A model generated the notes under the pieces. It did no database searches. It had not been told where the DNA came from and worked only from the letters and a program-made list of their open reading frames with translations. A program made the translations under genes and the position numbers. A stretch of 64,000 nucleotides of DNA. Source: an uncultured virus (IMG/VR IMGVR_UViG_3300006735_000014) (lineage: Duplodnaviria; Heunggongvirae; Uroviricota; Caudoviricetes). Shown here piece after piece: positions 20,728 to 50,109 of this stretch (the stretch's first letter is position 1; each line of letters begins with the position of its first letter). The stretch lies in IMG/VR virus record IMGVR_UViG_3300006735_000014; one strand, written 5' to 3'.

Positions 20728-20883
20728 TTAATTTTTTGCCCATGGATATTTTTTATTTAACATTTCTCTGCGATCATCACAACCACAATCTTTTCCAGTC
20801 ATTTTAGATATAGTCTTTACAGCTTTTTTTATACCAATTACTGATGTAATTTTATCTATACTATCTCCTAAACCTTTAGACAT
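20728..20883 (-). CDS. Small CGC-motif protein (51 aa), absent from the ORF track
   Basis: Manual translation MSKGLGDSIDKITSVIGIKKAVKTISKMTGKDCGCDDRREMLNKKYPWAKN; GGAG SD; fills the gap exactly. Confidence 0.8.
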   Translation of the reverse strand: MSKGLGDSIDKITSVIGIKKAVKTISKMTGKDCGCDDRREMLNKKYPWAKN

Positions 20884-21205
20884 GAATATTCTCCACTTGC
20901 ATTTGTATTTTGGCTTCTTTGATTATTGTTTTAATTTCTTCAATATGAACACTTATATCTTGAACTTCTTTGGATTCATCATATACTTCAATTCCTTTTC
21001 TATGCATAATTAATCGTATAAGTTTCTTTTTCTTTTCAGGTGCTAATGCTTCTACTGCTGGTTGGACTGTTCCACTTGCAACAGCTGTTTCTAATTCTAA
21101 AATTATCTCAAGAACAGAGTTCCAAGTATATCTTGCTGCTTCATCAGTTGTAGGAGCTTTTTCCCACTTAAAATCTGCATTTTCCCATTTAATCTTGTTT
21201 GCCAT
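20876..21205 (-). CDS. Hypothetical protein (109 aa)
   Basis: First gene after the capsid terminator; upstream ATATTTATA motif. Confidence 0.7.
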   Translation of the reverse strand: MANKIKWENADFKWEKAPTTDEAARYTWNSVLEIILELETAVASGTVQPAVEALAPEKKKKLIRLIMHRKGIEVYDESKEVQDISVHIEEIKTIIKEAKIQMQVENIHV

Positions 21206-21301: not shown

Positions 21302-22984
21302 TTATATAGTATCCAATCCATCTACATGAATCTTACCATAGAATTCTGGTCTTACCATTTTCTTAGCATATCTAGTCATTACACCTTTTCTTGGAGTGAA
21401 TGAAGCTGGATCATATACTAATGGAGTCATGATAAGTGGAATGTATGGAGCATAAACTGCACCAGTTTCAAGGAATTGAGCTCCTCTATATCCCATAAGA
21501 ATTGTATTCTCAGTCATGTATGGGTTTTTATAAACTTGGAATCTACTATTAATAGAACCAACTTTTTGTACACCCATTGCAAACTGCATTTTATCACCAT
21601 CTGTATCAGCAGCATATCCAGGAATAGATTCTAGGATAGTTGCAACAGTTGGAGAACATACTAGGAAGTTTGCACCACCTCTTAATGTTAACTGGTGAAT
21701 TTTGTTACTTACTTTCTGGATTTTAGTTCCTAAAGTTTGGAACCAAGTACCTTGGTTGTAAGCTGCAGAATTTCCAGCTGTATTAGAGAATGTTGTCAAC
21801 GTTGAATCATATTCAAAGCCTAATCTTGCTGACCAGAAGTCAGTAGTTTGAGCATTTTGCATTAACATATCTAATAATTCTAAATCAATTTCTTGCGAAA
21901 CGTATTCAGATAACATAGAAGTTAATTCAGCCTCAGCATCAATTGAATGATAAGCATTCAAGTCTTGAGCAAATTCTGGAGTCCAGATTGCTTTTAACTT
22001 TCTTGTCTTAGCAACAATCGCCTCAGATCTCATCTCTAGGTTGATTTCTGGAATAGCTAAAGCAGAATTAGATGCACCTGAATCTTGTGATTGATCTTCA
22101 AAGTCACCTCTTGAAGTATCACCAGGTTGCTTCTGGTAAGTAATTGTACCGTTCTCAACAGCTGCAGTTGCTACAGATGATTTAACTAAGAATGATACTT
22201 TTGGTGTAGCACTTGCTAGACCAGTATTTCCTGATACAGTAGTAAATTGAGGATAATAAGTCTCAATTCCTGAACCTGAAATTTGGAATGCTCTAACACC
22301 ATTTGCATCAGCTAAATCAGAAGCTGCAAATGTAAAGTCTACAGTTGTTAATTGACCGATTCCAACAGATGCAGCAGCTAATGAAGCAGAAAATTCTGAA
22401 TCATGATTAGTTCTTTGCTCAAAAGTTGTTTGAGTAAATGCTGAACCTGTTACAATGTTAGTACCAACAACACCAGTTGCAGTTACTTTGTTTCCTAATG
22501 ATGTTTCGTTAACTGAATAACCAAATCTACCTGCGCCATAAAGACCTTCAGTAGCTACGGTTGATCCTAACGTATCATCAGTTACACCGAATACAGAATC
22601 GTTTTGTGAATCTTTACCAGAGTTTGTAGTAAATCCTGGTTGGTTGGTCCCATACTTGAAATCAAGGAAGAATACTAGACCAGAAGGTAAGTTCATTGGT
22701 TGTACACTTACAAAATCTTTAGCAGCAATCTCAGCAAAAATTCTTCTTACCAATGGTAATGCTACACCTGACCACTCTTCTGAGTTTGCAGATGTACCTG
22801 TAGAATTTGCTTCTGATACTAATTGTTTTGCTTGGTTTTCCAATAGAACTGCCATTCCTGACTTTTCATATTCTTTACCTAAACCTTCAAGAAGACCAGT
22901 TCTTTCCCATTTTCTAACCAAACCTGCTGTAGCAGCTTTTGATTTAGCAACGGAATCATTTGGCATTAATGAATTTATATCCAT
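21302..22984 (-). CDS. gp23: Major capsid protein (T4 gp23 family)
   Basis: LPLVRR, SVQPMNLPSGLVF, AKTRKLKAIWTPEFAQDLNAYHSIDAEAEL, YAPYIPL, PRKGVMTRYA. Confidence 0.97.
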   Translation of the reverse strand: MDINSLMPNDSVAKSKAATAGLVRKWERTGLLEGLGKEYEKSGMAVLLENQAKQLVSEANSTGTSANSEEWSGVALPLVRRIFAEIAAKDFVSVQPMNLPSGLVFFLDFKYGTNQPGFTTNSGKDSQNDSVFGVTDDTLGSTVATEGLYGAGRFGYSVNETSLGNKVTATGVVGTNIVTGSAFTQTTFEQRTNHDSEFSASLAAASVGIGQLTTVDFTFAASDLADANGVRAFQISGSGIETYYPQFTTVSGNTGLASATPKVSFLVKSSVATAAVENGTITYQKQPGDTSRGDFEDQSQDSGASNSALAIPEINLEMRSEAIVAKTRKLKAIWTPEFAQDLNAYHSIDAEAELTSMLSEYVSQEIDLELLDMLMQNAQTTDFWSARLGFEYDSTLTTFSNTAGNSAAYNQGTWFQTLGTKIQKVSNKIHQLTLRGGANFLVCSPTVATILESIPGYAADTDGDKMQFAMGVQKVGSINSRFQVYKNPYMTENTILMGYRGAQFLETGAVYAPYIPLIMTPLVYDPASFTPRKGVMTRYAKKMVRPEFYGKIHVDGLDTI

Positions 22985-23004
22985 TTTTTAATCTCCTTTT
23001 AATA

Positions 23005-24054
23005 TTAAAGTAATCCAGCTAACTTCTTAAATCTATTAGCAACATCATTTCCTTCTGAAAGGACTTTCTTTGATGGTCTTGTAGATCTCGAAGGCTTACT
23101 AGCATACGATTCTTTAATGGTTTTTACTTTTCTTTTACCACCCAATTTGAATGACTCAGTCAATGTAGCAAATACTAACTTAACTTCTCTCAATGTTTGA
23201 GCTCTGTCAAAGTTTTCAATTACTTTCATTTTCTGACCTTCATTCAATGAATGATTTCTAAATAATTTGTTCGAGAATAATAGTTTAGCATTTAGCAAGT
23301 TAACTTCATTCAACTTAGACTTCATAAATCTGATTACTTTGTAAGCTTCTTCAAGGTCTTTTGCTGCATCACCATCATCAACACCTGCTGTGTCGTTTTC
23401 TTCTACTGGTTCTGCTTCATCGCCTTCTTCTTCTCTCAAAGCATTAATGATTTCGTCAAGGTCAACTTCTTCTTCTTCAGTAACTTCTTCTTTGTCGTCA
23501 CCTTCGTTTTCTTTAAGTTTTCCTTTGCCTGGGTCTTCTTCATCTGAGGATGATGCTTGTTTCATACTAGTTCCTTTACCAATACCAGTTGAACCAGACT
23601 GTTCTTCAACAGTTTCTTCTTCATCTTCACCTTCTGTTACAGCTTCTTCATCTTCACCTTCAAGCTCTCGTAAGATTGCTTCTAGTTCTAAATCTTCTGC
23701 TTCAGAATGCATATCGGTTGGATCTTCGTCATCTTCGCGCATACCTTCATCAGTTTCTTCCCCTCTCATTCCTTCTTCTGCCATTTCGTCGTCAGCCATT
23801 TCTTCTTCCATTTCTGGAGCTGGTGCCTCAACTGGTGCTTCCATTTCTGGTTCAGCAGCAACTGGTTCATCCATTGGCATTTCGTCTTCCATAGCCATTT
23901 CATCTTCCATACCTTCTTCTTCAGAAAGTTTAGCAGACAACATGCTTTGAAGTCTTGGAGTAAAAGCTTCTTCTAATGCTATTTTAGCGTTTGCTAATGC
24001 TGTTTCTCGTACCGCTTTCGCGTCAGCAATAGCTTCTTTCAATAAATTGTTCAT
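23005..24054 (-). CDS. Prohead core / scaffolding protein (gp22-like)
   Basis: Highly acidic centre with helical termini, directly upstream of the MCP. Confidence 0.8.
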   Translation of the reverse strand: MNNLLKEAIADAKAVRETALANAKIALEEAFTPRLQSMLSAKLSEEEGMEDEMAMEDEMPMDEPVAAEPEMEAPVEAPAPEMEEEMADDEMAEEGMRGEETDEGMREDDEDPTDMHSEAEDLELEAILRELEGEDEEAVTEGEDEEETVEEQSGSTGIGKGTSMKQASSSDEEDPGKGKLKENEGDDKEEVTEEEEVDLDEIINALREEEGDEAEPVEENDTAGVDDGDAAKDLEEAYKVIRFMKSKLNEVNLLNAKLLFSNKLFRNHSLNEGQKMKVIENFDRAQTLREVKLVFATLTESFKLGGKRKVKTIKESYASKPSRSTRPSKKVLSEGNDVANRFKKLAGLL

Positions 24055-24257
24055 TTATCTCTCTCCTTTAATAAATTTGTTCGGAAATAAGACTATTAAG
24101 AGTCTCAATGTGAATTGTTATAAAAATATTCAGGGACGGTGATATTGAAGCACCGTATATACTTGTTACAATTATAAATATATACAGTTATTGAAAAACC
24201 TACTTTTTTTCAAGAAAATTTTTAGCTTAAATAAAAATAATAAAGTATAGATAAAAT

Positions 24258-24518
24258 TTACCTATCTTCTTTGGAATTAATTTGTTGAAAATATTTTGCA
24301 TTATCCATTTGTTCACGCCTTCTATCGGATTTTTTTCTAAAATATCTTCTATCTCTTAACTCTTGCAATGTTCCTGCATCTTTAAGAGCTCTTTTCCAAA
24401 ATCGAATTGCAAATCCAATATCTCCTTGATCTTTAGGATTTTTTGGATTTTTTACTACGGCTGCGCCCAGAGCATGTCCTGGTAAATGCGATTGCCAAAT
24501 TTTATGTTTCTTATTCAT
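24258..24518 (-). CDS. rpsU: Phage-encoded ribosomal protein bS21 homolog with N-terminal extension
   Basis: DIGFAIRFWKRALKDAGTLQELRDRRYFRKKSDRRREQ matches the bS21 pattern (I..ALRRFKR....G.L.ELR.R..Y/F.KPS..RR); head-module location is known for bS21-encoding phages. Confidence 0.85.
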   Translation of the reverse strand: MNKKHKIWQSHLPGHALGAAVVKNPKNPKDQGDIGFAIRFWKRALKDAGTLQELRDRRYFRKKSDRRREQMDNAKYFQQINSKEDR

Positions 24519-24545
24519 GTAATTTATTTTACGTTATAACTATTA

Positions 24546-24577
24546 TTAATATAAAGAATATATTTCAATTTACCAAA
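24546..24577 (-). promoter_or_regulatory. Bacteroidota-like -33/-7 promoter upstream of bS21
   Basis: TTTG-N20-TATATTAA, compared with consensus TTTG-N19-21-TAnnTTTG. Confidence 0.6.
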
Positions 24578-24580
24578 TGA

Positions 24581-25102
24581 TTATTTGTTTTTCTTTTGGC
24601 TAATTGCAGTTTTCATTGGCTCATCAGTATTACCATCTTTATCCATATCTAGATAATCAGGTTTTGCATCATCTTCCTCTCTCAATGCTTCATTTATCTT
24701 ATAATACTTATTTAATGTAGTACCCATATCTTCATATGCAGATTCTAACCTTTGTTGTAACGTCTGAACTTCATTAGCTGTTTTTGAAAATACTTTATAT
24801 GCTTCTTTCAATTGTTTCATATGACGAGTTGTAGTAACATTATCAAACCAATGTTCTGATTCTTGTAATGTAAGAGCTTCTGCTACCTTTACTATATTAC
24901 CCAATTCTTCTGTAATTTCTCTTAATGAATGATTTCTATATATAGACTCACCCATTGTATGATAATTACCAACTGCTTCAGTGAAAGATTTTTTTTGTTC
25001 TGATGTTATACCAGTTTCTTCTTCTTCGCCAAAGTTTTCCATAATGTATTTTGATTTTTTCATTATAGTTTTTAATAGTGCATTTTCGTATTTATTTGCC
25101 AT
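24581..25102 (-). CDS. Hypothetical head-module protein (173 aa)
   Basis: Coiled-coil; C-terminal DYLDMDKDGNTDE EF-hand-like motif. Confidence 0.7.
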   Translation of the reverse strand: MANKYENALLKTIMKKSKYIMENFGEEEETGITSEQKKSFTEAVGNYHTMGESIYRNHSLREITEELGNIVKVAEALTLQESEHWFDNVTTTRHMKQLKEAYKVFSKTANEVQTLQQRLESAYEDMGTTLNKYYKINEALREEDDAKPDYLDMDKDGNTDEPMKTAISQKKNK

Positions 25103-25103
25103 T

Positions 25104-25520
25104 TTATAGTCCCTTACCTTTTTGTCTTTCTAAATATTTTTGAAGTCCTTCTAATTGTTTTTCAGATCCCATAATATATCTAGATAATTGTTTTTCCATA
25201 GTTTCATATTCATAGTTACCTGATTCATCACCTCTCATTTCAATATCTGTTCCTAAATCTTGATGAAAGTCTCTTACAGCATCCATTAACTTATTAAGTT
25301 GATCTGAATAATATTCAATATCTAATGGTTCTTGTTCTTGACCTGTTGCTCCTGCACCTGGTTCTAATGCTGCCTTTCTTTCTGCATCTGTTTTCATTTT
25401 AGGAAATGCTTGAACCATTGGCGCTTCATTTAATAAAGAATCTTCCATTTTTAAATTATTTGCCTTTGCAAAATCTGCTCTTCCTTCAAATAATCTTTGA
25501 TATTGTTTTTTCAAATTCAT
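25104..25520 (-). CDS. Hypothetical head-module protein (138 aa)
   Basis: In-operon ORF; GGAG SD. Confidence 0.7.
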   Translation of the reverse strand: MNLKKQYQRLFEGRADFAKANNLKMEDSLLNEAPMVQAFPKMKTDAERKAALEPGAGATGQEQEPLDIEYYSDQLNKLMDAVRDFHQDLGTDIEMRGDESGNYEYETMEKQLSRYIMGSEKQLEGLQKYLERQKGKGL

Positions 25521-25521
25521 T

Positions 25522-25782
25522 TTAAAACTCCACGCTATCTATATATAATGTAGGTCTTCCTCCAGTCATACCAAATTTTGATCCATCTTTTACACCTTCT
25601 AATCCTACATTCTTTTTACCTTCAAATGCCATTGGATCTTTTTTTGTAGTTACTGAATACTTAGATGCATTTTCTGCTCCTAAAACTTCAAGTCCACCAT
25701 TCTTCTTTCCTTCGCCTGCTAATACATCAGCATTCTTTTGAGTGGCAGTTGGTCCATATTGTGATTGCATATCTTTTAACAT
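25522..25782 (-). CDS. Hypothetical protein (86 aa) with internal EGKKNxGLE duplication
   Basis: TAAGGAG SD; EGKKNGGLE and EGKKNVGLE. Confidence 0.7.
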   Translation of the reverse strand: MLKDMQSQYGPTATQKNADVLAGEGKKNGGLEVLGAENASKYSVTTKKDPMAFEGKKNVGLEGVKDGSKFGMTGGRPTLYIDSVEF

Positions 25783-25783
25783 A

Positions 25784-26389
25784 TTAGTACTCCTTAATTA
25801 TATCAGTTATTAATTTATTTACATTTGCATATTTATCAAATTGTTTTTTTGATTTTCCTTCATTTACTGGAGATAAAAATGCTCCATGAGTTGATGGATT
25901 TGAAACAAAGTCAAATGCAATTAGTTCAAAATCAGGCTGAACTTCTAATGTATCATCACCTTCTCTCATTACTTCTTTTACAGATCCCATACCTCTTGAT
26001 GATATACCTAATCTAATACCTGATTTGAATAGTTCTTTTAAAATGTTACCTGCAGGAGTACCTAATACTTCTACAGTTCCAACTAAATCATCACCTTGCC
26101 AATTCATACCTAAAACGTTATGACTTACATTATTTAAATTAACTACAGATGAATCTGGATGATCTAATTCTCCAAGAGCTCTCTTTTCTTTAATAAATCC
26201 TTCAGCATATTTATTTGCTTCTCTCATTAAAGTTTCTTTTGGATATATTCTTCCATTTTGATTCTTTGATTCAGCTCTTTGCAGAACTCCAGAAACAATT
26301 AATTTTCCGCCATTTTTAGATAGACTTTCATTAATTTGTTGAGGAGTTATCTCAAATGTTTGATAATTAACTAATAATTGCTTTGCCAT
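25784..26389 (-). CDS. gp21: Prohead core protease (T4 gp21 family)
   Basis: NQNGRIYP, ALGELDHP, VSH, GISSRGMGS, FDFVSNPS. Confidence 0.95.
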   Translation of the reverse strand: MAKQLLVNYQTFEITPQQINESLSKNGGKLIVSGVLQRAESKNQNGRIYPKETLMREANKYAEGFIKEKRALGELDHPDSSVVNLNNVSHNVLGMNWQGDDLVGTVEVLGTPAGNILKELFKSGIRLGISSRGMGSVKEVMREGDDTLEVQPDFELIAFDFVSNPSTHGAFLSPVNEGKSKKQFDKYANVNKLITDIIKEY

Positions 26390-28171: not shown

Positions 28172-30055
28172 CTACGCTTTTTCTTCTTGAATCAGTATAT
28201 CTTCATCCAACATTGTACCTTTATCAGGATCAGCTTTTTCAGTTGAAAGACTTTCTTGTAAAACTTTTGAAGATTTTGATTTATTTTGTAGCAAATCTGC
28301 AAATGCTTTAGCTTCTGTGCTTAGTGGTGAACCACCTCTATATTTATGTTGTAGTGGCGACTTATCTGTTGCAAATGCTTTATCTAATCCTTTTGCACCA
28401 ACAGCGTCTCGTCCATAATCAGAATTAGCTCTTCCAAATGCACCAAATTTCTTTGGTCTTCCTGGTCCTGCTACTGGATCATTAGCTCCTTCATCTTGCT
28501 GACCTGGTATGTCTAGATTTCCCTGCACATGCATCGAAGCTATATCATGAGGTGTTCCAAACGATTGATTTGTCTTTTGAGGATCATTTCCTTCTGACTT
28601 AATTTGTTCTTTTCTGAATTCTTCTTTAAGATCTTCAATAACTTGATCTTGTTCTGTATTCCATTCATTTTGGCTCATACCAAATACATTTTCATATATG
28701 TATCTTTCTGAGAACATACCTGATTCTTTAAAATTAGATACTAATCCTAATTTTTCATTTAATAATTCTACCTTTTGTTTTTCATAAACAATTGATGGAT
28801 TAGTTAAAGTTAATTCAAAATTGATAAGATCGGCATCTGTATATCCTTGTGTATATAAATGTACAATTGCAATTTTAGTTAATTCAGATGTAAATATTTT
28901 TTGTATTCTTTCTATAGTTCTTGCAAACCTAATATCCTCTGCTGCTAATGTTGCCTTTCCTTCTACACCTTCATCATATCCTAAAAATGCTTTTGGTATT
29001 CTTAATGCAGCATGCATTTTATTTCTTAAATAATCTATATCTTCAGTTTGTCCATCATTACTTGTACCAGGTAAAGATTCTATATTAGTTCCAGATTCAC
29101 CACCTCTTACTGGTAAATAATAATCTTCTAACATGTTTTGTAGATTAAATTTAAGATTATAATCACCTGTTTGTTCATCCATATAAGGAACTTTTTTCAT
29201 TTTGTTCATTATTTGTTGCATATGTGAATCAACTTCATTTGGTGGTATATTACCTACATCAATTTTAAATATTCTTCTTTCTGGAGCTCTCATTATTCTA
29301 TGTAACAACATTGCATCTTCCATAAGAGTTAATTGTTTGAATACTTTTCGTGCACCTTCTAACATTGATTTACCATACGGTAAAAAGTTTGTATCTGACA
29401 ATAATCTAAAATGTGCTACCTCAAATGGATCATATTCCATTTGTGAATTACCTCCTTGGCCAATATTACTCATTCCTTCATAATAAAATTTAACGGCATA
29501 CGGATTTTTATCATCAAACTGCTCTTCACGTCTCATTTCATATGCAGACATTGGAACTACATTTACAATACCAATTTCTTCATCAATATCTAAATGTAAA
29601 TAAAAGTCACCATATTTACATGCATTTCTAATCCAAGGCCATAAGTTATATTCTACATTTAATACATCATAAAATAAATTTCTTAATATTTTTCGTATAT
29701 TATCATCAGATGATTTAATTGTTAAAGTATCACCATCAGCATCCTTCACTGTACTTTCATCTGCATATATATCTAATGCTGAAGATATAATTGGGTCCAT
29801 ATCCATACCTTCATAATCTGTATATAATTCTACTCTATTTTGATGATAATTTGCTGTATTATTATATGTGCTCCATCCTGGGTTTTTTGTATGAATTCCT
29901 GAAAACCGATCAATGTATTTTGTCTGTCTCATGTTACCCATTGATTGTAACTTATTTGAATCTACAACTTGTAGTCTCTTTTTACCAATTCTACGAACTA
30001 TTACATTCGTTGAAAAAAGTCTTCTAAGTCTAGATCTTAATGATTTGTTTGCCAT
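28172..30055 (-). CDS. gp20: Portal protein (T4 gp20 family)
   Basis: EDAMLLHRIMRAPERRIFKIDVGN, EDYYLPVRG, EDIDYLRNK...ALRIP. Confidence 0.95.
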   Translation of the reverse strand: MANKSLRSRLRRLFSTNVIVRRIGKKRLQVVDSNKLQSMGNMRQTKYIDRFSGIHTKNPGWSTYNNTANYHQNRVELYTDYEGMDMDPIISSALDIYADESTVKDADGDTLTIKSSDDNIRKILRNLFYDVLNVEYNLWPWIRNACKYGDFYLHLDIDEEIGIVNVVPMSAYEMRREEQFDDKNPYAVKFYYEGMSNIGQGGNSQMEYDPFEVAHFRLLSDTNFLPYGKSMLEGARKVFKQLTLMEDAMLLHRIMRAPERRIFKIDVGNIPPNEVDSHMQQIMNKMKKVPYMDEQTGDYNLKFNLQNMLEDYYLPVRGGESGTNIESLPGTSNDGQTEDIDYLRNKMHAALRIPKAFLGYDEGVEGKATLAAEDIRFARTIERIQKIFTSELTKIAIVHLYTQGYTDADLINFELTLTNPSIVYEKQKVELLNEKLGLVSNFKESGMFSERYIYENVFGMSQNEWNTEQDQVIEDLKEEFRKEQIKSEGNDPQKTNQSFGTPHDIASMHVQGNLDIPGQQDEGANDPVAGPGRPKKFGAFGRANSDYGRDAVGAKGLDKAFATDKSPLQHKYRGGSPLSTEAKAFADLLQNKSKSSKVLQESLSTEKADPDKGTMLDEDILIQEEKA

Positions 30056-30086
30056 AATTTTCTACTTTTATATAAATATGATTGTA

Positions 30087-31670
30087 CTATAAAAGCCAGG
30101 TTAAATCGTCGTTGTCTTTATCTCCACTCTTCCAATCCCATCCTGAACCTTTTAAGTCTGTTTTTGTTGAATATACTCCTTCTGATGTCTTTCCTATACC
30201 GCCTAATGATTTTCTATTTAAATCCATACCTTGTTGATGAAGTCTTAATGCTGTATCTCTCATCCATAATCCTGTTGCAAATGACATTACTAAATCATCA
30301 TTATAGCCCCTTGCAGCTTCTGCTCTATGCCCTAACCAAATAAATGTAAATAATTCATCTACTAATCTTTTTGAATGAACCAATGGTGTTTTATCTCTAA
30401 AATATGTTTCTAATTTAGATATTACTAATGGACGAGTTCTTGATGTCATTGAAAATCCAGGAACTTTTTGTGATTTCTTTTTTAAATCATATCCTTTCTT
30501 CAAGTGTATTTCCTCATCTAAGTATCCATCTTGTTTATAAGAATAGTATAGATTTTGGTATCCTTTGTCTAATGCTACCTGAATGGATGCCCATCCTATA
30601 TTTGCATTTTCAATAACTAGTAATGCATTATTATATTCTGTTGCAACTGATATTAACATATTACCATATTCGGTAGTTCCTATTTTACCTCTATATTCTG
30701 CAACTTGTTTACATTGTTCTGTATCAAATACATGGAATGCAGAGTAATCAGTTGAATCTCCTCTTGCAACGTCAGCTACAACCATATATGATTTTGAATA
30801 ATTTGGATATTCCCATATCCAATAATTTCCATCCATTCCTCGCTTTTCAATTGGATCTTTAACATATGTTTCCTGATACCATTGTAGTATTTCTCCATCT
30901 ACTACTGTATGTCCAGATGATATAAAATCACAGTCACATTCTTGAGCGGCCATTTTCTCACCTAACAATTCTGTTTGTTTATCTCGCCAAGCTTGATCTC
31001 TATCTGGATGTACTGTCCAATGTAATGATATATTATTAAATTCTCCGCCTGCAGTTGCTTCTACCCATTGTTTATGAAACCAATTACCAACTCCATTAGG
31101 TGTAGATAATGCAATACAATCTCCACCAGTTGCTAATGTTTGTTGAGCGGCTGTCCATATATCATCAATTTTATCAATAAATGCTGCTTCATCAAATATC
31201 AATAATGATAATGCTTCAGATCTACCTGCATCACCTTTTGATGATATGGCCTTTATTTGCGACCCATTACTTAATCTTAATGAAAGTTTATTATCTTCAG
31301 CAACTGCCCCCTTTAACCATTTAGGTAAGTTTTCATGCATTACTCTAACCTTTGTTACAAGGTTCTTTGCAACATCTTGTTTAGTTGCAATTACTAGACA
31401 GTTAAAATCTGCCTTAAATAACATTTTCCATAATGCATATCCGGCTGTTAAAGTTGAAATTCCTAACTGTCTAGACTTAAGAATAATATTATATCTATTT
31501 TGAGATATCTGTGTTAATGATTCTTCTTGGAATGGATACAGATTAAAATATATTTTTCCTTGAGTAGGATGTTGAATTATACAGTATTTACGCATAAAGT
31601 GTATAGGATCTTGTACACACTTCTTATATTCATCGCGTATGATTTCTTTTAATGTTTTCTTTACTGACAT
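30087..31670 (-). CDS. gp17: Terminase large subunit (T4 gp17 family)
   Basis: KSRQLGIST Walker A; LLIFDEAAF Walker B; LSTPNG; nuclease motifs ADVARG.STDYS and DDLVMS. Confidence 0.95.
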   Translation of the reverse strand: MSVKKTLKEIIRDEYKKCVQDPIHFMRKYCIIQHPTQGKIYFNLYPFQEESLTQISQNRYNIILKSRQLGISTLTAGYALWKMLFKADFNCLVIATKQDVAKNLVTKVRVMHENLPKWLKGAVAEDNKLSLRLSNGSQIKAISSKGDAGRSEALSLLIFDEAAFIDKIDDIWTAAQQTLATGGDCIALSTPNGVGNWFHKQWVEATAGGEFNNISLHWTVHPDRDQAWRDKQTELLGEKMAAQECDCDFISSGHTVVDGEILQWYQETYVKDPIEKRGMDGNYWIWEYPNYSKSYMVVADVARGDSTDYSAFHVFDTEQCKQVAEYRGKIGTTEYGNMLISVATEYNNALLVIENANIGWASIQVALDKGYQNLYYSYKQDGYLDEEIHLKKGYDLKKKSQKVPGFSMTSRTRPLVISKLETYFRDKTPLVHSKRLVDELFTFIWLGHRAEAARGYNDDLVMSFATGLWMRDTALRLHQQGMDLNRKSLGGIGKTSEGVYSTKTDLKGSGWDWKSGDKDNDDLTWLL

Positions 31671-33128: not shown

Positions 33129-35588
33129 CTACTTATCGCCAAGTCCGCCTATTCCTAACAATTGATTGATAGGAGCAAATAAACCTGTTAATTTATATGT
33201 TTTTCCTTTATATACAAATACTATACCCTCTGTTGGCACTAATTTTTCAAATCCACCTAAATCTTCAATACGTTTTAATTCAAACTTTAATTTGTCAAGT
33301 GACGCTAAATCCTTAGATTTCTGTATGACTTTGATTTTTGCAGCTATCCGCCTTTTCATATCCTTTATTGCATCTGTAGGAACAATTGATAAATAATCTG
33401 ATATATTATGTAGTATTTCAACTCCTAATTCTAAAAAGATTTTTTCAAAATTATATACATTTTGTTTGTTTTGTTGTTTAAAATTTTGTTTATCAAATTC
33501 TTTAGCTTTTTGTAATATTTCTGGATCAGGTATATTTTTTGAATTCATTCTAAATGATTTATCAAAATATGCCCATCTTTTTAATAATCCTAATTTTATA
33601 TCATCTGTTGCATTAGGTATTATTTGATTTATTCTTACTTCCCACCATTTTTGATGCCACATTATTAATTCATCTGAATCCTTTAATTTGAATTGAGATT
33701 GTAAGGATGTTACTTGATCTATAAAATATTTTTCCTTTTCTTCAAAATCAGGTAATTGTTTTGTAGTTAGAATTTTAGGTGGAATTATTTCAAATCGCTT
33801 TTGTATATTTGCATTAACATTGGCTATTGTTTTTTGTAATAATGGTGCATATTCAGGATATGAATCAACTTTAACTGCTAATTCTAAATCATATTCATCT
33901 ACTCCATGAAATTGTATATATGCCTTTGGTCCATACATTATAACATTTTGAGTTCCTGGGTATATAATTTCCATGTTTAAAAATCTTGAACCGTTTTGAA
34001 ATATTTCAAATAATTTATCTTTTGGTACTCTTAATAATGCGCGTTCTAAATCTTCCATTGCAAATGTAAAAGCTTTTTCTATTTCACCTCTACCTGCAAA
34101 TTTCATTCTAACAGCATCAATATCCATTGGATTCTTAATTGTAGTTTTGTTTCTTGCTGCTCCAAGTTTACCATCTTTAAAAGTAACTAATAAATTTTGT
34201 CCGTCTGTTTTTTCTTGAACTCCAGATTCAATATTTAATTTACCTTCTAATGATAATCGTATCATTTGTTTCATATCCGCAAATGTAATATCTCTATCAT
34301 CAAATGGATGATTCATGTGTCCGGCTGCTCCACCCTCTGTTAATAACTGTAATGCAATTGATTCTCCTAATGATTTAGGTTTTGGTTCTTGTGGCATAAT
34401 TCTAAATCTTGCTGCAGACCTACCATTAATTAATAAGTCTCCTTTATCATTAAAATTAATTGTTTTCACTACTACCTTTTTATTTTTAAATCTACCCATC
34501 ATAATTGTATCGCCGATATTGATTGGTAAATTAATATCTTCTTTTAATGTAGTTGGCACTAATATCTCTCCTTTACTTGATTCAATAGAATCTTCTGCTC
34601 CTAAAAAATCTAAAAATTTATATCCTACAGATTGAGCAATATTTGAAATATAACTCTTCCATTTTGAATACCCAGGCCTTCCTTTGTAATCTTTAATATA
34701 ATCTGTACCAGAAAACTCTCCTCCCTTGACACCTGTTGGAAAGTATGATACTGTCAATGGTGGTCCATCTGGAAAATTTGTATTATGAACTTCAATAGGA
34801 TTATCCTTTACAATATAATTTATAACTTCATATCCTAAACGTTTTGCCATGGCATCTGTTTTCTTTCTATATGTATTCTGATTTCCATAAAAGTATCTTG
34901 GTCCATCATCTACATCAGCTTTACCTTGGCCTGTAACATTACTTCCTTCTTTAACTATAAATGATTCCATTATTGCAGAAAACTTTTTTCTTAATAACTG
35001 ATATATTTTTGGATCATACCAGCCCATTATATTTTTAAATGTTTTCATGTCTGCGGTTGCCAATGCGGCTCTAATTGTTGTACCTGACATTTCACCAAAT
35101 CCTGGTACTTTTAACTCTATATGCGGTGATATAACAACGTATCCATGTTTATCATATCCTTTTAGATTTGATTTAGACTTTGCAAAATCCTGGAAATAAC
35201 CAGGTGAACCATCTTTTTTTGTATATCTTAATCTTCCTGCATCTTTTTTTCCATATACAAATACCACTGCAGTAGTTTCAGGATTATATTTTTTTAATAT
35301 ATTTTCTGGAGCATAAACATTTTTTTCTTGAGAAACATTTGTTATTCCATGTTTTCTAATTACCTGAACCTTTTCTCGAAAGTTTAATGGAGATTTTGGC
35401 AATGCAACTTTATCTGATGTTGCAATATATGTATTTTGTTTTCCAAATTGTTTTGCTAACCAGTCATATACTTTTGCATGATGTTGACCCATTGGTTGAA
35501 ATCTACCTGGATATATTGCCACTACGGTTTTAATCGGAGAATCCATTTCCGTTAATAAATTGTCTACTATTTGTTCACCTAAATTCAT
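33129..35588 (-). CDS. Multidomain protein: N-terminal HIGH-superfamily (cytidylyltransferase-like) domain and C-terminal ATP-dependent ligase/nucleotidyltransferase-like domain
   Basis: IYPGRFQPMGQHH...MSGTTIR; later EKTDGQN (KxDG motif I), NMEII, EGIVF (motif IV), YKLTG (motif V). Confidence 0.7.
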   Translation of the reverse strand: MNLGEQIVDNLLTEMDSPIKTVVAIYPGRFQPMGQHHAKVYDWLAKQFGKQNTYIATSDKVALPKSPLNFREKVQVIRKHGITNVSQEKNVYAPENILKKYNPETTAVVFVYGKKDAGRLRYTKKDGSPGYFQDFAKSKSNLKGYDKHGYVVISPHIELKVPGFGEMSGTTIRAALATADMKTFKNIMGWYDPKIYQLLRKKFSAIMESFIVKEGSNVTGQGKADVDDGPRYFYGNQNTYRKKTDAMAKRLGYEVINYIVKDNPIEVHNTNFPDGPPLTVSYFPTGVKGGEFSGTDYIKDYKGRPGYSKWKSYISNIAQSVGYKFLDFLGAEDSIESSKGEILVPTTLKEDINLPINIGDTIMMGRFKNKKVVVKTINFNDKGDLLINGRSAARFRIMPQEPKPKSLGESIALQLLTEGGAAGHMNHPFDDRDITFADMKQMIRLSLEGKLNIESGVQEKTDGQNLLVTFKDGKLGAARNKTTIKNPMDIDAVRMKFAGRGEIEKAFTFAMEDLERALLRVPKDKLFEIFQNGSRFLNMEIIYPGTQNVIMYGPKAYIQFHGVDEYDLELAVKVDSYPEYAPLLQKTIANVNANIQKRFEIIPPKILTTKQLPDFEEKEKYFIDQVTSLQSQFKLKDSDELIMWHQKWWEVRINQIIPNATDDIKLGLLKRWAYFDKSFRMNSKNIPDPEILQKAKEFDKQNFKQQNKQNVYNFEKIFLELGVEILHNISDYLSIVPTDAIKDMKRRIAAKIKVIQKSKDLASLDKLKFELKRIEDLGGFEKLVPTEGIVFVYKGKTYKLTGLFAPINQLLGIGGLGDK

Positions 35589-37012: not shown

Positions 37013-40000
37013 CTAATCTCGTAAAGCGTTCATTTGTTGCATTGATGTACTAATACCATCATCAAATCCAGTTATAGCTACTATAACATCTATTAATATT
37101 TGCGATTCAACTTCGGTGCCATCATCAACTAAATCAAATCCTTTTATTAATCCTGGGTCATGATCTAAAATCATATGCATAACTCTATCTCCTCCTTGTG
37201 ATCCATCAAATACTAAATTAACTCCACCTGTAACAGCCCTTGTATAATCAGACACGTTACCATTTGTCACTGTCACAACTTTGGTTGCAAAATTGGTTGC
37301 TACTGCAGAACCTGATAACAACATGCTTGATGCAGTTATTTGTCCATTTGCTTTCAAGAATGTTTGTCCTCCATCTCCTGAATTACTTGTAAGTTGTGTG
37401 CTATCAAATTGCCATCCTGCTATTTGATTGTCATCTGAACCTGCTGTTTCTCCTAGATGGAATATTGTCCCGCCGGCTCCATTACTTGTTTTTCCTTCAA
37501 TACCCCATGTATCAACATCATGGTCTTGATACATTCTAACATAGTTGGAAGTACCTACTCCCGTTCCATCAGATGAAATTCTAATTTCTGTTTGTCCTGA
37601 ATCTGCAGAACTTTGTCCCATCCATATCATTCCGCCTGCAGAGTCATACTTTATATAATTATTTGCAATCAACCAACCACCTATTTCACCTGCTGATGAT
37701 GTGATAGCTCCACCTTTATCAACTTTGAAATTACCAGTATCTATTATATAATGGCCTGCAGAATTAATAGTTAAGTTTGTTGCGGCCAAATCAAATGTTT
37801 CTGCTTTCATTGTTAATGCAGTTCCATCTTTCTTAAGATAATTATTTGCATCTCCATATGCAAGGAAGTCACCAGTACCATCCATGTATATACCAGCATT
37901 TGTTCCTGCCACAGATGTGTTTGGAGTTGAACCTAATGCAATCTTACCTGAATTGGTTCCACTATCTAATATCATAGTTGATGTTGCAAGATCAAATGTA
38001 TTAGCTTTAATTTCAACTGATGTACCAGATGCATCAAATTTTACAAAGTTAGTTGAATTACCATATGCAAGGAAACTACCATCTCCGTCCATATAAATAC
38101 CTTTATTGGTTCCGGCTACAGATGCATTTGGTGTAACACCTAATGTTAAAATACCACTACCACTCAAGATGGCATTACCACCTTTTATTTTATCAGTTGA
38201 TATTGTCCAACCACCTACAGTTCCATCATGAATAGATGGTTCTTTGTATGCATATACTCGATCAACAATTAATGGATCTCCAGCTGCTATATCAGTCCAA
38301 TTTAAAACAATTAATGAAGCCCATTTAGCTGTGCTAGTTGGTCTATATATAAATTCATAATCTGTAAATGAAGTTGCAACAGGTCCATTTTCAACACTTG
38401 TTCCAGCTATTCTTTCAAATTGGAATGAACCACTTGAATTTTGAGTTCCTTGCGTCACTTGCCTTGTAGCTTCTTGTACGCCAGCTTCTGAGTTACTAGC
38501 ATTATAAGATACATGAGTATCTCCAGAATCTAACTCAGAATCATATTCTTGCATTCTAATATAAAGTCCGGATGAATCAACTACTTCTCCTCGAAGCCTT
38601 ACTTGTACTCGATATTCAGATCCAACTGATACATGAAAGGCTGGCCAGCCAGCGCCAATATGGGCATCACTATCATTAACAATTACTAGTTGTTGACTTG
38701 CTGCTAAACTTCCAGAAAAACTAATATTGGTTGCGGTTGCACCACCATACACGGCTTTTACTCCGGCTGGTCTTCCATCAGGCGCAGCTAATTCAAAATT
38801 AGGATTATAAATTAAAGAACTTCCTTGAGTGGTTGAACCTGTCTGATTCAATGTATTGGCTTCTGTTAAATCTGAAGTTCCGATAGTTACTGTTCCAGCA
38901 AATCCCGCATTACCTGTTGCTGTATCAACATAGAATTGTTTTGTATGAATTCCATCTGCACCAATGGTTATATCTGCATTGTTTGCGGCAAATCCAGAAG
39001 TGTCTTTTGTTCCAGAATATATTGCATCTTCTTCAATTGTAAAGCCTGCTATTAATCCACCAGATGCTGATATTCCTCCTGATACAATTAAATCTGTTCC
39101 GTCAAATTCTAATGATGGATTTGTATCTCCACCCATTTTAAATGTGCCATCATTAAGATTAAACTCAGATCCTACTTGGCCACCATCGGTCCAATTATTA
39201 GATTGCACTTTACCAGTTTTAACCATATCACCAGTTATTTTGGTAATACCTTGTTGATATGATTCTTGGTCTAAATCTTTCTTAAGTAGGAAGTCTAAAC
39301 AACGTTCCAATGGTGTTTCTTTAATATAATTATATCTTGTAGTTGATATAATTATTCTACCTCCTCTTGGATTAGTACCATAAAATGCTAAATAGGCTGC
39401 AGTTGTATTTGTAGCTATATTACCAGTATCTGATATTGTAGGTATCGAACCAGATATTGCAATTGGTGCATATGTAGAACCTCCTCCATCTGAATAAACT
39501 GTTATTGGAATATTACCTGTATCAGCAGGAGCCGAATCTGACCATACCGACCAACCTTGACCGATTGGATCTGTTTCTTGCAATCCAGATCCTGTTGCTA
39601 TATGACCGTTTTCATATGGATTTGATGCAACACCACTAGTATGCTGTTTAATAGGATAATCAGTACCACCTGATCCGGTTACATCTGCACCTGCCATATT
39701 ATTCGCTTGTACAAATACAGACTGTCCTTCATCAAATAGATTCATAACCATCTGTTCTTTTTCTACATTCCATACTTCACCTGAAAATACATATAAATCA
39801 TATCCTTGATCGTAACCTAAAATATCCGAAGGCGTAGTTGAACCTGTAGTTGTATTTTCAAAGTAATTTGTATATCCTAATGAACTTGAAATAACTCTAC
39901 TACCTGGTGTAGGATCTGCTGAAGCTGATTCTATTAATGCAATTCTATAATCTGCCTTTGTTTTATTTGGCATATAAAATGATTCAGAATTTTGTACTTG

Positions 40001-43000
40001 AATATTTCCTATTATTTGTAATGATGCATCAGCTGCGCTCCACATCAATGAACCAGTACTATCTCCTCCTAAATAGAAGTTACCAGCACTATCCATATAA
40101 GTTGCAAAACCACCATTATAATATCCCATGTATTGAGATGTTAAATTTAATCCTTCAGCTGCTGTATTTGTTGTCAATGTGAATCCATCTCCTCCAAATG
40201 CATAATTGGATGGATTATGTAATGATGTAGTAGCTGCGTTAGTTGTATAAGGTCCTAACATTGAACTGGTTGCTGTTTCTTCTATGAATCCTCCAATCAA
40301 TAATGTAGTACCGTCCCAAGATAATTTTGGATTGCTAGAACCTCCTAACTTGAATGTTCCATTATCTAAACTAAATTCAGAACCAACTGATGGGCCCCAA
40401 TTATTTGATCTTAAATGTCCTGATGTTATAGAATCTCCTTCAATGATTGTTCTACCAACACCTGCATTAGGACTTAAATATAATGCTTGAACTTCTTCAT
40501 CAGTTAATGAACCAGTATAAATCCTAAAGTCATCTATTTCACCTTTAAAATTATATGCATATTGTGCTCCTTGGTATCCTCCGATGTTAAGATCTGCTCC
40601 TACAGCTGGTCCCATTGTTGGATTTCTATATTTTGCCCAACCTTTCCATTGACCATTAATATATAAACTTGCAGTCAATGTTAATGTATCATTTACAACA
40701 GCAAAGTGAGTCCATAATCCATCATATTCTTGCCAAGTAACATCTGGTCCTCCTGGATATTCTTGGAAAGGATTATTGTCACCATCACCTGTATTCCATA
40801 ATATTTTAGTGCCATTAAACCAAAGATCTAATTGAGCATTATTACCAGCACCACCAACACCAGCAACTAATGCTCCTCCTCCGTGAGGATTTGTAAATGA
40901 AGTATCTGCATCAACTGAAAATGACATTTGAGAAGTATCTGATTTGTCTATCTTTAGCCAATGTGCAAATGTATGGTTATCATATAATTGTATTGGATTC
41001 AATGTTAACTTACCAGTTTTATCAGTTACACCTGGAAATACTGCAGAACCACCTATTTTGGCACTTGAAGAATTGCATGTAACGGCCGTACCGGCGTCTA
41101 TCTGAATGGTTCCATTTTCATGTTGTCTAAATCCTGACACATCTTGTAATAAACTACTTGAACCAAAAGATCCAGTTGATATAAATCCATCAAATGGTAA
41201 ATGTAAAATTAATCCTTCACTTGGAGGAGCGGTTGGTAATGAACTTACTTCAATCTTTCCTTTGAAATATCCATTGGTTGTATAAATACCATGACCAGTT
41301 ACTCCATCACTAAATGAACTATCTGTTATTCCTGATAAATCTCCTACTTGTGCTGCAAGATTCAAATCATATAATCCTGAACCTGTTCTTTCTACAATTT
41401 GCATATATGGTGTAAATGGGTCATTTGGATTGGCATTTAATCTAATATATCCAGTATTAATTTTACCTGTTGATACAATTACCTGAGAACCTGTATATGA
41501 TTGTGCAGCAAATGGAGAATCTCCTAATGAACCTGATGGTCCATGAGTAGGAGAACCATCATAACTTATACTCCTAGTTACAAATAAGAAGCCACCAAAG
41601 TCAGTATCGCTTGATGCATCAAATCTAGAAGCTGATTGAACTCTTACGTACTCTGTAGTAAATCCAGTTGATGATACTTTTTTAAGTGATAATATTTCTC
41701 CATATGTAAATCCAGATACATTTGCAATTGACATTGTTGTATCTGTTGCATCATGAAAGGCTCCTGGATGTAATGCTGATCCTGTTAACACTGATGAGTT
41801 TGCAACATATAATTGTCCACCAACCGCATTAACTGTTTCTTTTTCAAATACTGCAGTAGATAATGTTCCTCTTATTCTTGCATTCTCTACTTCTAGGAAT
41901 CCTCCTGACACCGCAGTTAATCTAAATCCTGAACCTGCTAAGTTTGAAACAAATCCATCTGATTCAATAGTTCCTTCTTTTCTGATGATCATATTACCAC
42001 CAGTTAATTTTTCATTATCAAATGCCCAACCAGCAATTTGATTATCTTCTTCTCCTGATTCTACATTGGCTCCTAAAGCAAATAATATATTGCCTCCAGA
42101 TTTGCCCATCAATCCCCAATTATCACTTGCAGCAAAATGTGTTCTTACAAAATCATCTGCAGATTTTCTAACAAGTAATTCAGGAGTAGCTCCTCCTTCA
42201 AGGAATGCATTTGATGATGATAACATATCACCGTTTATATTCCAACCTGCAATATCTCCTCCATCAAATAATACCTGTGATCCAGTTATTCTACCATCAG
42301 ATCTTAATATCAAGTCTTCATTTAATGATTTAATTACATCTGTTTGTACTTCAAATCCACCAATACTTGCAGATACAAATTTGGCTAAACCTTGAGATGT
42401 AATAGATGCAGATGCATTTGATAATGTTGATGGCGATCCTCCAATTGAAGCAGGAGTTTGAATATTATCAGCTGTAATTGTTCCTTGTACTGTTAATGTA
42501 CTTCCTAAAAATTGTAAGAAGTTACCAGCTGCTTTATCACCTAATAATATATCAGAACCTGTAATTGTTCCATCAGCTGATACTTTAAATGCTGAAGAAG
42601 ATATAAATGATACTGGATCTGCTGTATCTAATGATGCTGATATTCTCCATCTATTAGATCTATATAAAGAACCACTTATAAAATTAATTCCAGCTATTTG
42701 ATTTTCTGATCCTAATTCAAATATTTTTTCTGTTCCTACTGTTCCTAATAGTCCCCAATCAGTTGCACTATTATAAAACATATTTACTGTATTATTTGTA
42801 TCAGATTGTACTTTTACAAACGGTGTATTATCTCCTTGCAATACAATATAATCACTTGTAGATTTTAAATTTGTTCCATCTATTGTCCATCCAGCTACCA
42901 CTCCTCCATCAAATTGTACATCAGATCCTGTTACTTCACCTGAGTGTTTTACTTTAAATGTACTTGAACTAATAAAATATGTTTGAGTAGAATCATTTAA

Positions 43001-49000: not shown

Positions 49001-49152
49001 TGTACAATATCTCCAGCAATATAAATAATATCATTTTCTTGTTTTGTCTTTTTTATATAAGAATATAATCGTTTAAATACTTGTCTATATTCTTTATGAC
49101 GTTTAACATTTCTTATATGTACATCTGCTATGTGATATATTCTATTTATCAT
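46021..49152 (-). CDS. Fused Mre11/SbcD nuclease and Rad50/SbcC ATPase (gp47-gp46)
   Basis: Phosphoesterase motifs ADVH, GDIVH, GNHD, GDIH; Walker A PNASGKS; CSYC zinc hook; TSGMEK signature; IDEGFG Walker B; ISH. Likely ATG at 49152 overlaps the primase stop (ATGA). Confidence 0.9.
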   Translation of the reverse strand: MINRIYHIADVHIRNVKRHKEYRQVFKRLYSYIKKTKQENDIIYIAGDIVHAKTDMSPELIDLTSEFFSNLADLLPTIVILGNHDCNLNNNYRLDALSPIVKAINHKNLHYLKDNDVYDIQGVHFNVMAVDEKPAKYIKASDFEGNFKIALHHGSVHNASTDAGFTLSNTHVTTDMFIGHDLVLLGDIHKPQYLDDKKTIAYAGSLIQQNHGESLGHGIMIWDLKTKKSEFVEIENDYGYYTYEIDNGKIINPDSRVPKKPRLRLKVKDTDSGTLKQIIADIRSKYKVQDISIQKINALNTTDSKNKINFGNVRDVEWQNNVITEYLTDEFALDDELLDTVRHINRTVHSKLPTNTLTRNITWQPKKFEFSNMFSYGEDNEIDFSNMNGTYGLFAPNASGKSTLLDALAFTCFDRCSRTKKAAHVLNNKKSRFHCKFEFELGKYIYFIERTGKKNNRGHVKVDVNFWRVDKDGNEESLNGDQRDSTNKSIRQYLGSYEDFVLTALSLQNNNTGFIDKTQRERKDLLSQFLDIDIFEQQYLVGHEDIRETAALIREYKRKDFSTDLSTAREIISQYTGSYEQMKVDKTEHEEMKTNLNDIIFSLTKELKKVDDTLDSPDDIKYEITQLSDRIGNLKLDREHQKDLIKSQQKLIKEITQKINKIDEQSLKDALVELKDYNDTVIKLNNDLKLKQLKIQHAQKMVSKLDKHEWDEDCSYCMANPWLKETQQVADLLPKLIDEEQVLEFDIKHHEDGIAKIEHEDKPKEKLKVLADLKHSLGINNGTLIAYKHELEKCKWDIESINNDIRDKKKQLTKSQKQKDNIEFNKTKNSEISEIREEITTVSSELGQLHTKLLSLSGKLKMAEKSRQDAIDGINRLKSLEQQYQGYEYYQKAVQRNGVPYHLITRALPQIEAEINNILNQIVEFTIILHTDGKNINAFIVYDDDNYWPLELTSGMEKFISSLAIRTSLINVSNLPRPNFLAIDEGFGVLDSDNLNSMYMLFDYLKSQFGFIMCISHIDAMRDIVDKLIEIKKTNGYSNISYN

Positions 49153-50072: not shown

Positions 50073-50077
50073 GTATA

Positions 50078-50109
50078 CTAATATAAAGAAAACTTTTCAA
50101 ATAACCAAA
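50078..50109 (-). promoter_or_regulatory. Bacteroidota-like -33/-7 promoter upstream of primase
   Basis: TTTG-N20-TATATTAG ending 5 nt before the ATG. Confidence 0.6.

Follow-up and report, generated by a model that had tools for sequence, protein, structure and literature searches.

A bS21 gene without a Shine-Dalgarno sequence inside the Shine-Dalgarno-rich virion block of a marine T4-like virus, and a possible switch of translation

The uncultured virus IMGVR_UViG_3300006735_000014 encodes a homolog of ribosomal protein bS21 (positions 24258-24518) amid virion genes that mostly start behind a Shine-Dalgarno (SD) sequence, a signal that is no more frequent than background before its early and replication genes. 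We analysed a stretch of 64,000 nucleotides (nt), the window, which corresponds to bases 10073-74072 of this linear IMG/VR record (103,223 bp, GC content 32%). The minus strand holds all credible genes, bS21 included, and the features of the window given below by position lie on that strand. The bS21 gene is a separate SD-less unit behind a promoter motif that also precedes replication and early genes. The best single explanation of this arrangement, which we advance tentatively, is a temporal switch of translation based on the phage bS21, and a host that reads SDs anyway is nearly as likely as such a retuning of ribosomes.

Judged by sequence, the bS21 of this phage is genuine and strongly conserved, and its N-terminal tail is specific to phage. 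The open reading frame (ORF) of 86 amino acids (aa) passes the cut-offs of both PF01165 (E 5.5e-9, 36 bits vs 27) and the NCBIfam model TIGR00030 (34.3 bits vs 28.95), which bears out the naming of the gene in a preliminary description of this DNA. That description was also accurate on the N-terminal extension, on KKS in place of KPS at residues 62-64 and on the motifs RFW and NAKYFQ. The protein consists of the extension MNKKHKIWQSHLPG, an insert KNPKNPKDQ and two helices with a KKS hinge, and contains Tyr76-Phe77. Searching 5.8 billion proteins yielded 70 relatives of 73-93 aa, all of them metagenomic, and those with names are annotated as ribosomal protein S21. Among 50,697 phage records, tblastn with bS21 gave no match at E 1e-3. 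We aligned 22 of the 70 relatives. The best conserved part of the family is the N-terminal extension and not the bS21 core; it measures 15-19 residues, is basic and contains Trp, with the pattern MNKKHKIWQSHxPG. All 22 sequences have N2, K3, K4, K6, I7, W8, Q9, S10 and P13 in the extension, and equally invariant are F36, A37, R39-K42 (RFWK) and K62-K63-S64, the hinge that sits where cellular bS21 has KPS. The AlphaFold2 (AF2) model has helices at residues 34-58 and 63-85 and a mean predicted local distance difference test score (pLDDT) of 68. Residues 1-33 are unstructured in it (pLDDT 43-62), so the model is silent on the role of the tail.

Compared with solved chains, the family profile finds its best match in the bS21 of Flavobacterium johnsoniae (7jil_z, 5e-7). 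The match covers the entire chain and reaches the C-terminus, and Tyr76-Phe77 of the phage protein align to Tyr54-Ile55 of F. johnsoniae. By a crude measure, the last 25 residues carry a net charge of +3 compared with +11 in the bS21 of Marinimicrobia; the same measure ranges from +2 to +10 across related phage loci and gives +4 for the Microcystis phage Mel-JY01. Four metatranscriptome runs, available as contigs only, which cannot rank genes, cover the genes for the major capsid protein (MCP) and the scaffold, and bS21 barely.

For the SD analysis we scored each start by the strongest pairing that positions -20 to -3 form with a 9-mer anti-SD core, and called a gene SD-led at a free energy of -4.4 kcal/mol or lower; small plus-strand ORFs of less than 100 aa were excluded from the gene set. 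Across the 103-kb record 45/98 genes are SD-led, compared with 12.8% of 960 internal 18-mers. Of 33 GGAGs within 40 nt upstream of starts, 27 have their 3' end at -9 to -6, a clustered placement that points to a function in initiation. The SDs are unevenly distributed: 36/53 genes in the virion blocks are SD-led but only 9/44 early and replication genes, a share at the level of the 12.8% control (Fisher p 4.6e-6). The split persists when only Pfam-supported genes are counted (virion 10/14 vs early/replication 4/15, p 0.027). All 13 AGGAG or GAGGAG sites listed in the preliminary description are present 6-9 nt before ATG, at the starts 489, 9534, 11374, 11727, 15906, 20716, 22984, 24054, 25782, 26389, 32118, 36998 and 51190.

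In the window the virion block, with tail, baseplate, head, lysis and fibre genes, spans 184-45970, and 26/38 of its genes are SD-led when the part just outside the window is counted. Four genes upstream of bS21 form a head module (24581-26389) in which all are SD-led and separated by 1-nt gaps, among them the prohead protease (25784-26389). On the other side follow the gene in scaffold position (23005-24054), led by AGGAG at a spacer of 8 and 48.5% identical to a gene beside the MCP homolog in locus L143, and the SD-led MCP gene of the Gp23 family (21302-22984), with AGGAG at 22993-22997. The protease and the MCP are thus four and two genes away from bS21. The bS21 gene itself has no SD: the 25 nt before its ATG end atagttataacgtaaaataaattacATG, and the best anti-SD duplex is +0.6 kcal/mol. 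The sequences upstream of the primase (ttatattagtatacATG) and the terminase (ttatattaaaatactATG) are likewise without SD, and the portal is a further SD-less exception, all as previously described. The virion blocks contain 17 SD-less genes. In five of them, including portal and terminase, only 1-12 nt separate a TTATAT(A/T)A promoter core from the start, which leaves the leader too short for an SD and suggests late mRNAs that are leaderless or nearly so. In the window these short-leader genes are the portal and the large terminase (28172-31670), with starts 12 and 7 nt after the core, and two others at 33129-35588 and 20876-21205. The promoter core of bS21 ends 28 nt before its ATG.

The promoter-like motif upstream of bS21 (24548-24578), which we term class E, is 31 nt long and reads ATTTGGTnAnTTGAAAn4TTCnTTATAnT. 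Nine copies occur at up to 4 substitutions, compared with 0.04 per shuffle. Those before bS21, primase and DNA polymerase A match with 0 substitutions, and the others lie upstream of gp32, UvdE, three genes of the early region and the sole plus-strand ORF. In the case of the SD-less primase (49149-50110) the motif lies at 50080-50110. Because this motif is common to bS21 and the replication genes, bS21 is wired like the latter and not like its head-gene neighbors, from which it is separated by spacers of 62 and 203 nt. The bS21 site was also found as TTGGTA-17-TATATT (9/12). The A/U-rich, SD-less leader that follows (24519-24547) is conserved in relatives down to 48% protein identity. We aligned the window with 10 of 13 related IMG/VR loci, dropping L004, L009 and L016 as identical or too short. 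The approximately 60 nt from ATT(T/A)GG to the bS21 ATG are far more conserved than the sequence further upstream, and TTCTTTATATTAA is invariant in 11/11 sequences even though the proteins drop to 48% identity. In the bS21 leader, 30 nt before the ATG, most relatives (L006-L011) contain a direct repeat, ATAGTTATA...ATAGTTATA, 17 nt apart, whose second copy has diverged to ATAAATTAC in the window. Outside the window, three early-region genes (G000:C1 at about 98.7, 91.6 and 90.5 kb; L002, L003) have a common leader, AAATTAAAAATTAAAAA, abutting the start codon. This A-rich, G-free repeat may be an SD-independent start signal.

The promoter class also bears on whether bS21 works on the ribosome at all. 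Chen et al. raised packaging as a possibility (PMC9723584), and the gene does lie among head genes; bS21 might act inside the virion, packaged with the heads, or off the ribosome in counter-defence or as an RNA chaperone, with the SD pattern being unrelated. We judge this very improbable, as the gene shares its promoter class with replication genes rather than head genes, and conservation extends to the rRNA-contact residues and to both helices that bind the ribosome.

A second motif, cATATTTAT(A/T), is found in 26/97 upstream regions compared with 2% of random 75-mers and precedes many virion genes. It is also enriched in the Flavobacterium phage vB_FspM_immuto (18/210) and in Mel-JY01 (18/204), and is probably the late promoter of the lineage. 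One instance, gtatatatttataatt at 24170-24185, lies in the 203-nt spacer 3' of bS21 (24055-24257) and is followed by a long scaffold leader with AGGAG at 24063-24067. No Rfam family and no terminator was found around bS21, nor a terminator-like site in this spacer, and Pfam scans of the incomplete record turned up no gp55-like sigma factor. ClpP and terminase have a promoter variant, TTGTTTTT...ATAATTTATTATATTAAA, in common. The preliminary description had called the bS21 promoter host-type, which our counts do not confirm: the promoter does not match the Bacteroidetes -7 consensus TAnnTTTG, and this consensus is not enriched, occurring in 3/97 upstream regions and in 4.8% of random 75-mers. 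A looser form, TTG-N19-21-TAnnTT[TA][AG], is enriched here (7/96) and in immuto (36/210), but also in the Pelagibacter phage HTVC008M (3/41), and does not identify a host.

How could a phage bS21 be connected to SD use? bS21 is by far the commonest ribosomal protein in phages (PMC9976891). Tyr54 and Ile55 are the two bS21 residues that contact the sequestered 3' tail of 16S rRNA, with Tyr54 stacking on A1534, and Tyr54 is a signature of the phylum (PMC7797042, Jha 2021). F. johnsoniae ribosomes that are devoid of bS21 or have a damaged platform pocket gain SD reading (PMC9976891, McNutt 2023; PMC13000457, 2026). In the proposed switch, unmodified host ribosomes, SD-independent or SD-blind as in Bacteroidia, would translate the SD-less early mRNAs including that of bS21 early in infection. 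The phage bS21 would then displace host bS21 on 30S subunits, these subunits would pair their anti-SD with the SDs of the late mRNAs, and the mass-produced virion proteins would thereby be favored over host and early messages. Candidate parts for altering the hold on the 16S 3' tail, with Tyr54 kept, are the KKS hinge and the N-terminal tail, which is basic and contains Trp. We consider it possible, though doubtful, that this tail-and-hinge variant turns SD-blind Bacteroidia-type ribosomes into SD-reading ones and so times and boosts virion synthesis, and that gene loss, as in the immuto clade, accompanies genome-wide purging of SDs. If true, the coupling of bS21 and SDs in SD-ignoring hosts would give phage bS21 a concrete role open to testing by reporter assays, and a virus would re-specify start-site recognition by swapping one ribosomal protein. 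If the host reads SDs instead, this is a known gene in a known place.

The relatives of this phage show such a coupling in its vicinity. By MCP the nearest cultured phages are Mel-JY01 (59.7%) and immuto (57%). There is no bS21 in the 160 kb of immuto, where 11/215 genes are SD-led and, among annotated genes around its MCP, 3/46. Mel-JY01 has an annotated RpsU at the same position; 22/36 of its annotated genes are SD-led, and its structural region at 10-40 kb is richer in SDs than the remainder (16/30 vs 47/195, p 0.002). Among the loci with the bS21 type of the window, the bS21 gene is SD-less in 12/12 that were scored (L009, 821 bp, was omitted from the SD counts), and 108/194 ORFs on the bS21 strand are SD-led with the SD-less bS21 counted in, compared with 12-24% in internal controls. 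A scan with the MCP alignment matched 594 stretches, of which we analysed the best 80. In 50 of these bS21 lies 1.3-3 kb upstream of the MCP, in 12 it is absent despite at least 4.5 kb of upstream sequence each, and 18 were not judgeable. Read by eye, in these best 80 of 594 the loci with bS21 have a median SD share of roughly 43%, and those lacking it one of roughly 12%.

We then mapped these differences onto a midpoint-rooted FastTree phylogeny of 72 MCP sequences, from which loci of unjudged bS21 status or with fewer than 8 ORFs had been dropped. The immuto clade comprises four tips without bS21, and 3/83 of its genes are SD-led. Its sister (support 0.96) consists of three loci whose bS21 has Tyr54 and an MxKK...IVPG tail, and 22/50 of their genes are SD-led. 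The preliminary description had named equally strong late SDs in bS21-less relatives as a refutation of its reading; the opposite is seen here. The group of the window and the large clade surrounding it all have bS21 and an SD share of 28-74%.

Several observations weigh against retuning, and they begin with the protein. The Tyr54-equivalent position, a residue linked by published work to anti-SD sequestration, is Tyr, Phe or Trp in 22/22 aligned sequences. That Tyr54 and its neighbor are kept across the family argues against simple unmasking of the anti-SD. The kept equivalents of Tyr54 and Ile55 would fit with late SDs that are functional in an SD-blind host but are read by bS21-free 30S subunits, which would rise after host shut-off or targeted proteolysis; the Tyr54-keeping phage bS21 would then serve another purpose, for instance to maintain translation of SD-less phage messages or to block the rpsU feedback of the host. 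The natural pool of bS21-lacking ribosomes is substantial and SD-anti-SD pairing sterically excludes bS21 (PMC13000457), while bS21 exchange and a phage protease acting against host bS21 have been the subject of speculation (PMC9976891); the record encodes a ClpP with the terminase-type promoter variant. This course is nevertheless unlikely in our view, as neither the joint gain or loss of bS21 and late SDs in the immuto and sister clades nor the top conservation of the N-terminal extension would be explained by it.

The second difficulty for the proposed switch is the other half of the MCP tree. There, phages with an extension-less bS21 are 5-26% SD-led, a bS21-free clade is 6-40% SD-led, and a group whose extension-less bS21 gene has its own SD reaches 54-81%. 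In LR756508, an uncultured phage of 484 kb, bS21 lies near the MCP, yet only 6/50 genes are SD-led. Extension length and SD share do not correlate (rho 0.08 over 61 loci), in a table in which several starts were mis-called (L095, L110, L118, L126, L134). Given at most one or two independent contrasts, the association of bS21 with SDs could stem from shared ancestry or a host shift. The comparison of relatives with and without bS21 that the preliminary description proposed therefore favors coupling near this phage but not in the other half of the tree, where bS21-bearing phages (5-26%) stand beside bS21-free ones of up to 40%; with one or two independent contrasts it makes no general rule. In addition, the ORF calls are crude (longest ORF, greedy), and both the SD threshold and the anti-SD core are our own choices. 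Overall, the retuning idea is partly supported: the SD split, the SD-less bS21 gene behind a replication and early motif and the contrast of the immuto clade with its sister have held, and the kept Tyr54 and the uncoupled half of the tree speak against it.

These data also open the way to ordinary SD use. The host, for example a cyanobacterium or some other low-GC lineage of the sea in which SD use is optional, would simply read SDs; late SDs would mark the genes of highest output, bS21 would be a general booster or supply for translation, as put forward for other phages, and unconnected with SD reading, and the immuto clade would have lost both SDs and bS21 on moving to Flavobacteria. Mel-JY01, recorded on Microcystis, shares the synteny and a similar SD split, with bS21 in the same place next to an SD-rich structural block. 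The SD-rich group with an extension-less, SD-led bS21 in the same tree, the uncoupling in half of that tree and the lack of a host from the genome searches point the same way. On the other hand, early and late genes do not differ in this way in two marine T4-like phages whose hosts read SDs, in one 41-kb stretch each: SD-led genes amount to 13/21 structural vs 14/25 other genes in HTVC008M, which has bS21, and to 7/21 vs 11/33 in S-SKS1, whereas the early genes of our record are at background. The bS21 of the window has the Bacteroidia signature (Tyr54, a weakly basic tail and F. johnsoniae as best match), unlike that of Mel-JY01, which has a basic tail without Tyr54 and its own SD, and for which the F. 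johnsoniae chain ranked 24th of 26 solved matches. Nor does ordinary SD use readily explain why bS21 alone is SD-less inside an SD-rich block in all 12 scored relatives. We regard it as a serious possibility, but a doubtful one.

A decision between retuning and ordinary SD use depends on the host, and the check by the bS21 family, Hc1 and Marinisomatota searches found none. The bS21 family alignment had no relative in 185,579 species genomes, which likewise counts against retuning in a Bacteroidota host. Hints of a Bacteroidota-type host are the Tyr54 signature and weakly basic C-terminus of bS21, the kinship with immuto and the SD-less, A-rich early leaders. Among 14 control genomes, the Hc1 and DUF4494 genes were each matched solely in B. 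thetaiotaomicron. The nearest cellular Hc1 found, however, comes from metagenome-assembled genomes (MAGs) of Marinimicrobia at 55-60% identity. The search with the phage Hc1 gave five loci, three titled Marinimicrobia/Neomarinimicrobiota and two 'uncultured bacterium', which were pooled as one Marinisomatota set since the phylum draw of G001 included G002-G004. As a host marker Hc1 was ruled out, the nearest Hc1 clusters in the Atlas being viral and the protein widespread among viruses. In 401 Marinisomatota genomes, the 20-kb head segment found one related phage contig (G389:C49, in 1/401), which, if anything, counts against a Bacteroidota host, and a more distant phage-like contig, G376:C20, with a 25%-identical portal homolog and an Hc1 homolog. 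The other matches in these 401 genomes were short and at chance level, with no defensible spacer-like exact match.

The Marinimicrobia MAGs have SD features of their own. On their contigs (L030-L033, L034-L037) 9/62 neighboring ORFs have an SD. In four of these MAGs rpsU is preceded by an extended SD, with the core GGAGGTGA in 4/4 and the full AAGGAGGTGA in one, and the encoded bS21 lacks Tyr54 and has a tail that is very basic. The arrangement resembles the rpsU feedback of Flavobacterium, in another phylum of the Fibrobacterota-Chlorobiota-Bacteroidota (FCB) group, with a different bS21 type. On a contig of a 29%-GC Marinimicrobia MAG (L146; G127:C45:10714-18898), ten same-strand genes lie beside SD-less genes; nine of the ten have strong SDs (-6 to -11.6 kcal/mol) and the tenth scores -2.1. 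This run may represent a prophage, an island of foreign origin or a special operon.

The remaining gene content identifies a T4-like myovirus. Pfam matches include the Gp23 capsid (PF07068, 7.5e-77), the Gp20 portal (PF07230, 3.6e-83), a T4/Gp17-type terminase (PF03237), a Gp21-type S77 prohead protease (PF03420) and the sheath (PF04984 and PF17482), while the match of the tube to PF06841 is weak. The window further encodes gp15-like and baseplate proteins, a holin, giant fiber proteins, PhoH, endonuclease I, the primase and an SbcCD-like protein. The ORF at 184-489, previously labeled LysM, has no Pfam match at E <= 0.001. RecA, gp32, DNA polymerase A, a 5'-3' exonuclease, ClpP, Hsp20, UvdE, gp25, Hc1 and a DUF4494 fragment are matched outside the window, as is the sole tRNA of the record, tRNA-Arg(TCT). 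CheckV estimates the completeness of the 103-kb record at 58%, and the 24 runs that contain this DNA are marine or seawater metagenomes, or unlabelled.

A few of these genes are unusual. The ORF at 46021-49182 (1053 aa, called from a TTG start) combines a calcineurin-like phosphoesterase domain with SMC/AAA_23 domains, and is either an SbcD-SbcC (gp47-gp46) fusion or has a mis-called start overlapping the primase by 34 nt. The giant ORFs at 37013-45970 and 55623-61424, of 2985 and 1933 aa, are presumably fiber or decoration proteins, the second containing Laminin_G_3 domains. Outside the window (L001:4752-7306), DNA polymerase A is matched only in the C-terminal half of a 448-aa ORF, which a 396-aa ORF without Pfam match precedes; the polymerase may be split or highly diverged. 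ClpP (L002:10096-10737), Hsp20 (L002:13893-14306), the histone-like Hc1 (L003:321-506) and the truncated DUF4494 (L002:17215-17418) also lie outside. Hc1, Hsp20 and PhoH are SD-led, in contrast to most non-virion genes.

Searches of full-text literature outside subscription journals found no report of SD-led late genes tied to a phage bS21, but several known systems share parts of this arrangement. Pelagibacter phage HTVC008M is likewise a marine T4-like phage with its own bS21, adjoining Hsp20 (Mizuno et al. 2019, PMC6375957), and its bS21 was incorporated into E. coli ribosomes (as cited in PMC9976891). In HTVC008M, however, bS21 lies among non-structural genes and SDs are evenly spread. Phage immuto (MW353175.1) has T4-like genes for head and tail in common with our virus, together with the late-type motif (TATTTATA) and the early promoter type TTG-N20-TAnnTTT, but is without bS21 and has almost no SDs. 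In Mel-JY01 (PP395634.1) the order of protease, small gene, bS21, scaffold and MCP, the SD-rich structural block and the late-type motif cATATTTAT are the same; its bS21 differs in the features given above and also in its extension, and the recorded host is a cyanobacterium.

Chen et al. (ISME Commun 2:31, 2022, PMC9723584) described bS21 beside the head genes of freshwater Bacteroidetes myoviruses and proposed that the phage bS21 enters Bacteroidetes ribosomes, favoring phage transcripts late. As in our virus, bS21 of these phages is a few genes from the prohead protease, MCP, portal and terminase, Clp protease and Hsp20 are encoded, and an aromatic residue occupies the Tyr54 position. Their phages (clades a-e) have bS21 on the strand opposite to the structural genes and genomes of 293-331 kb from lakes, compared with the same strand and a 103-kb marine record here. 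The terms 'promoter', 'RBS' and 'ribosome binding' do not occur in the text of that paper, which reports neither an SD split nor a promoter class.

A mechanistic parallel is the anti-SD/rpsU system of F. johnsoniae (PMC7797042, PMC9976891, PMC13000457); phage are mentioned in neither of two 2026 papers, one of them PMC13000457. The protein family is the same, Tyr54-Ile55 are aligned, and in both cases the occupant of the bS21 site on the platform governs, or in the phage would govern, SD reading. The tail of 15-19 residues and the KKS hinge of the phage protein have no counterpart in the F. johnsoniae protein. In F. johnsoniae, one SD-led gene, rpsU, is read by bS21-free subunits, whereas here dozens of late genes are SD-led and the bS21 gene itself is SD-less.

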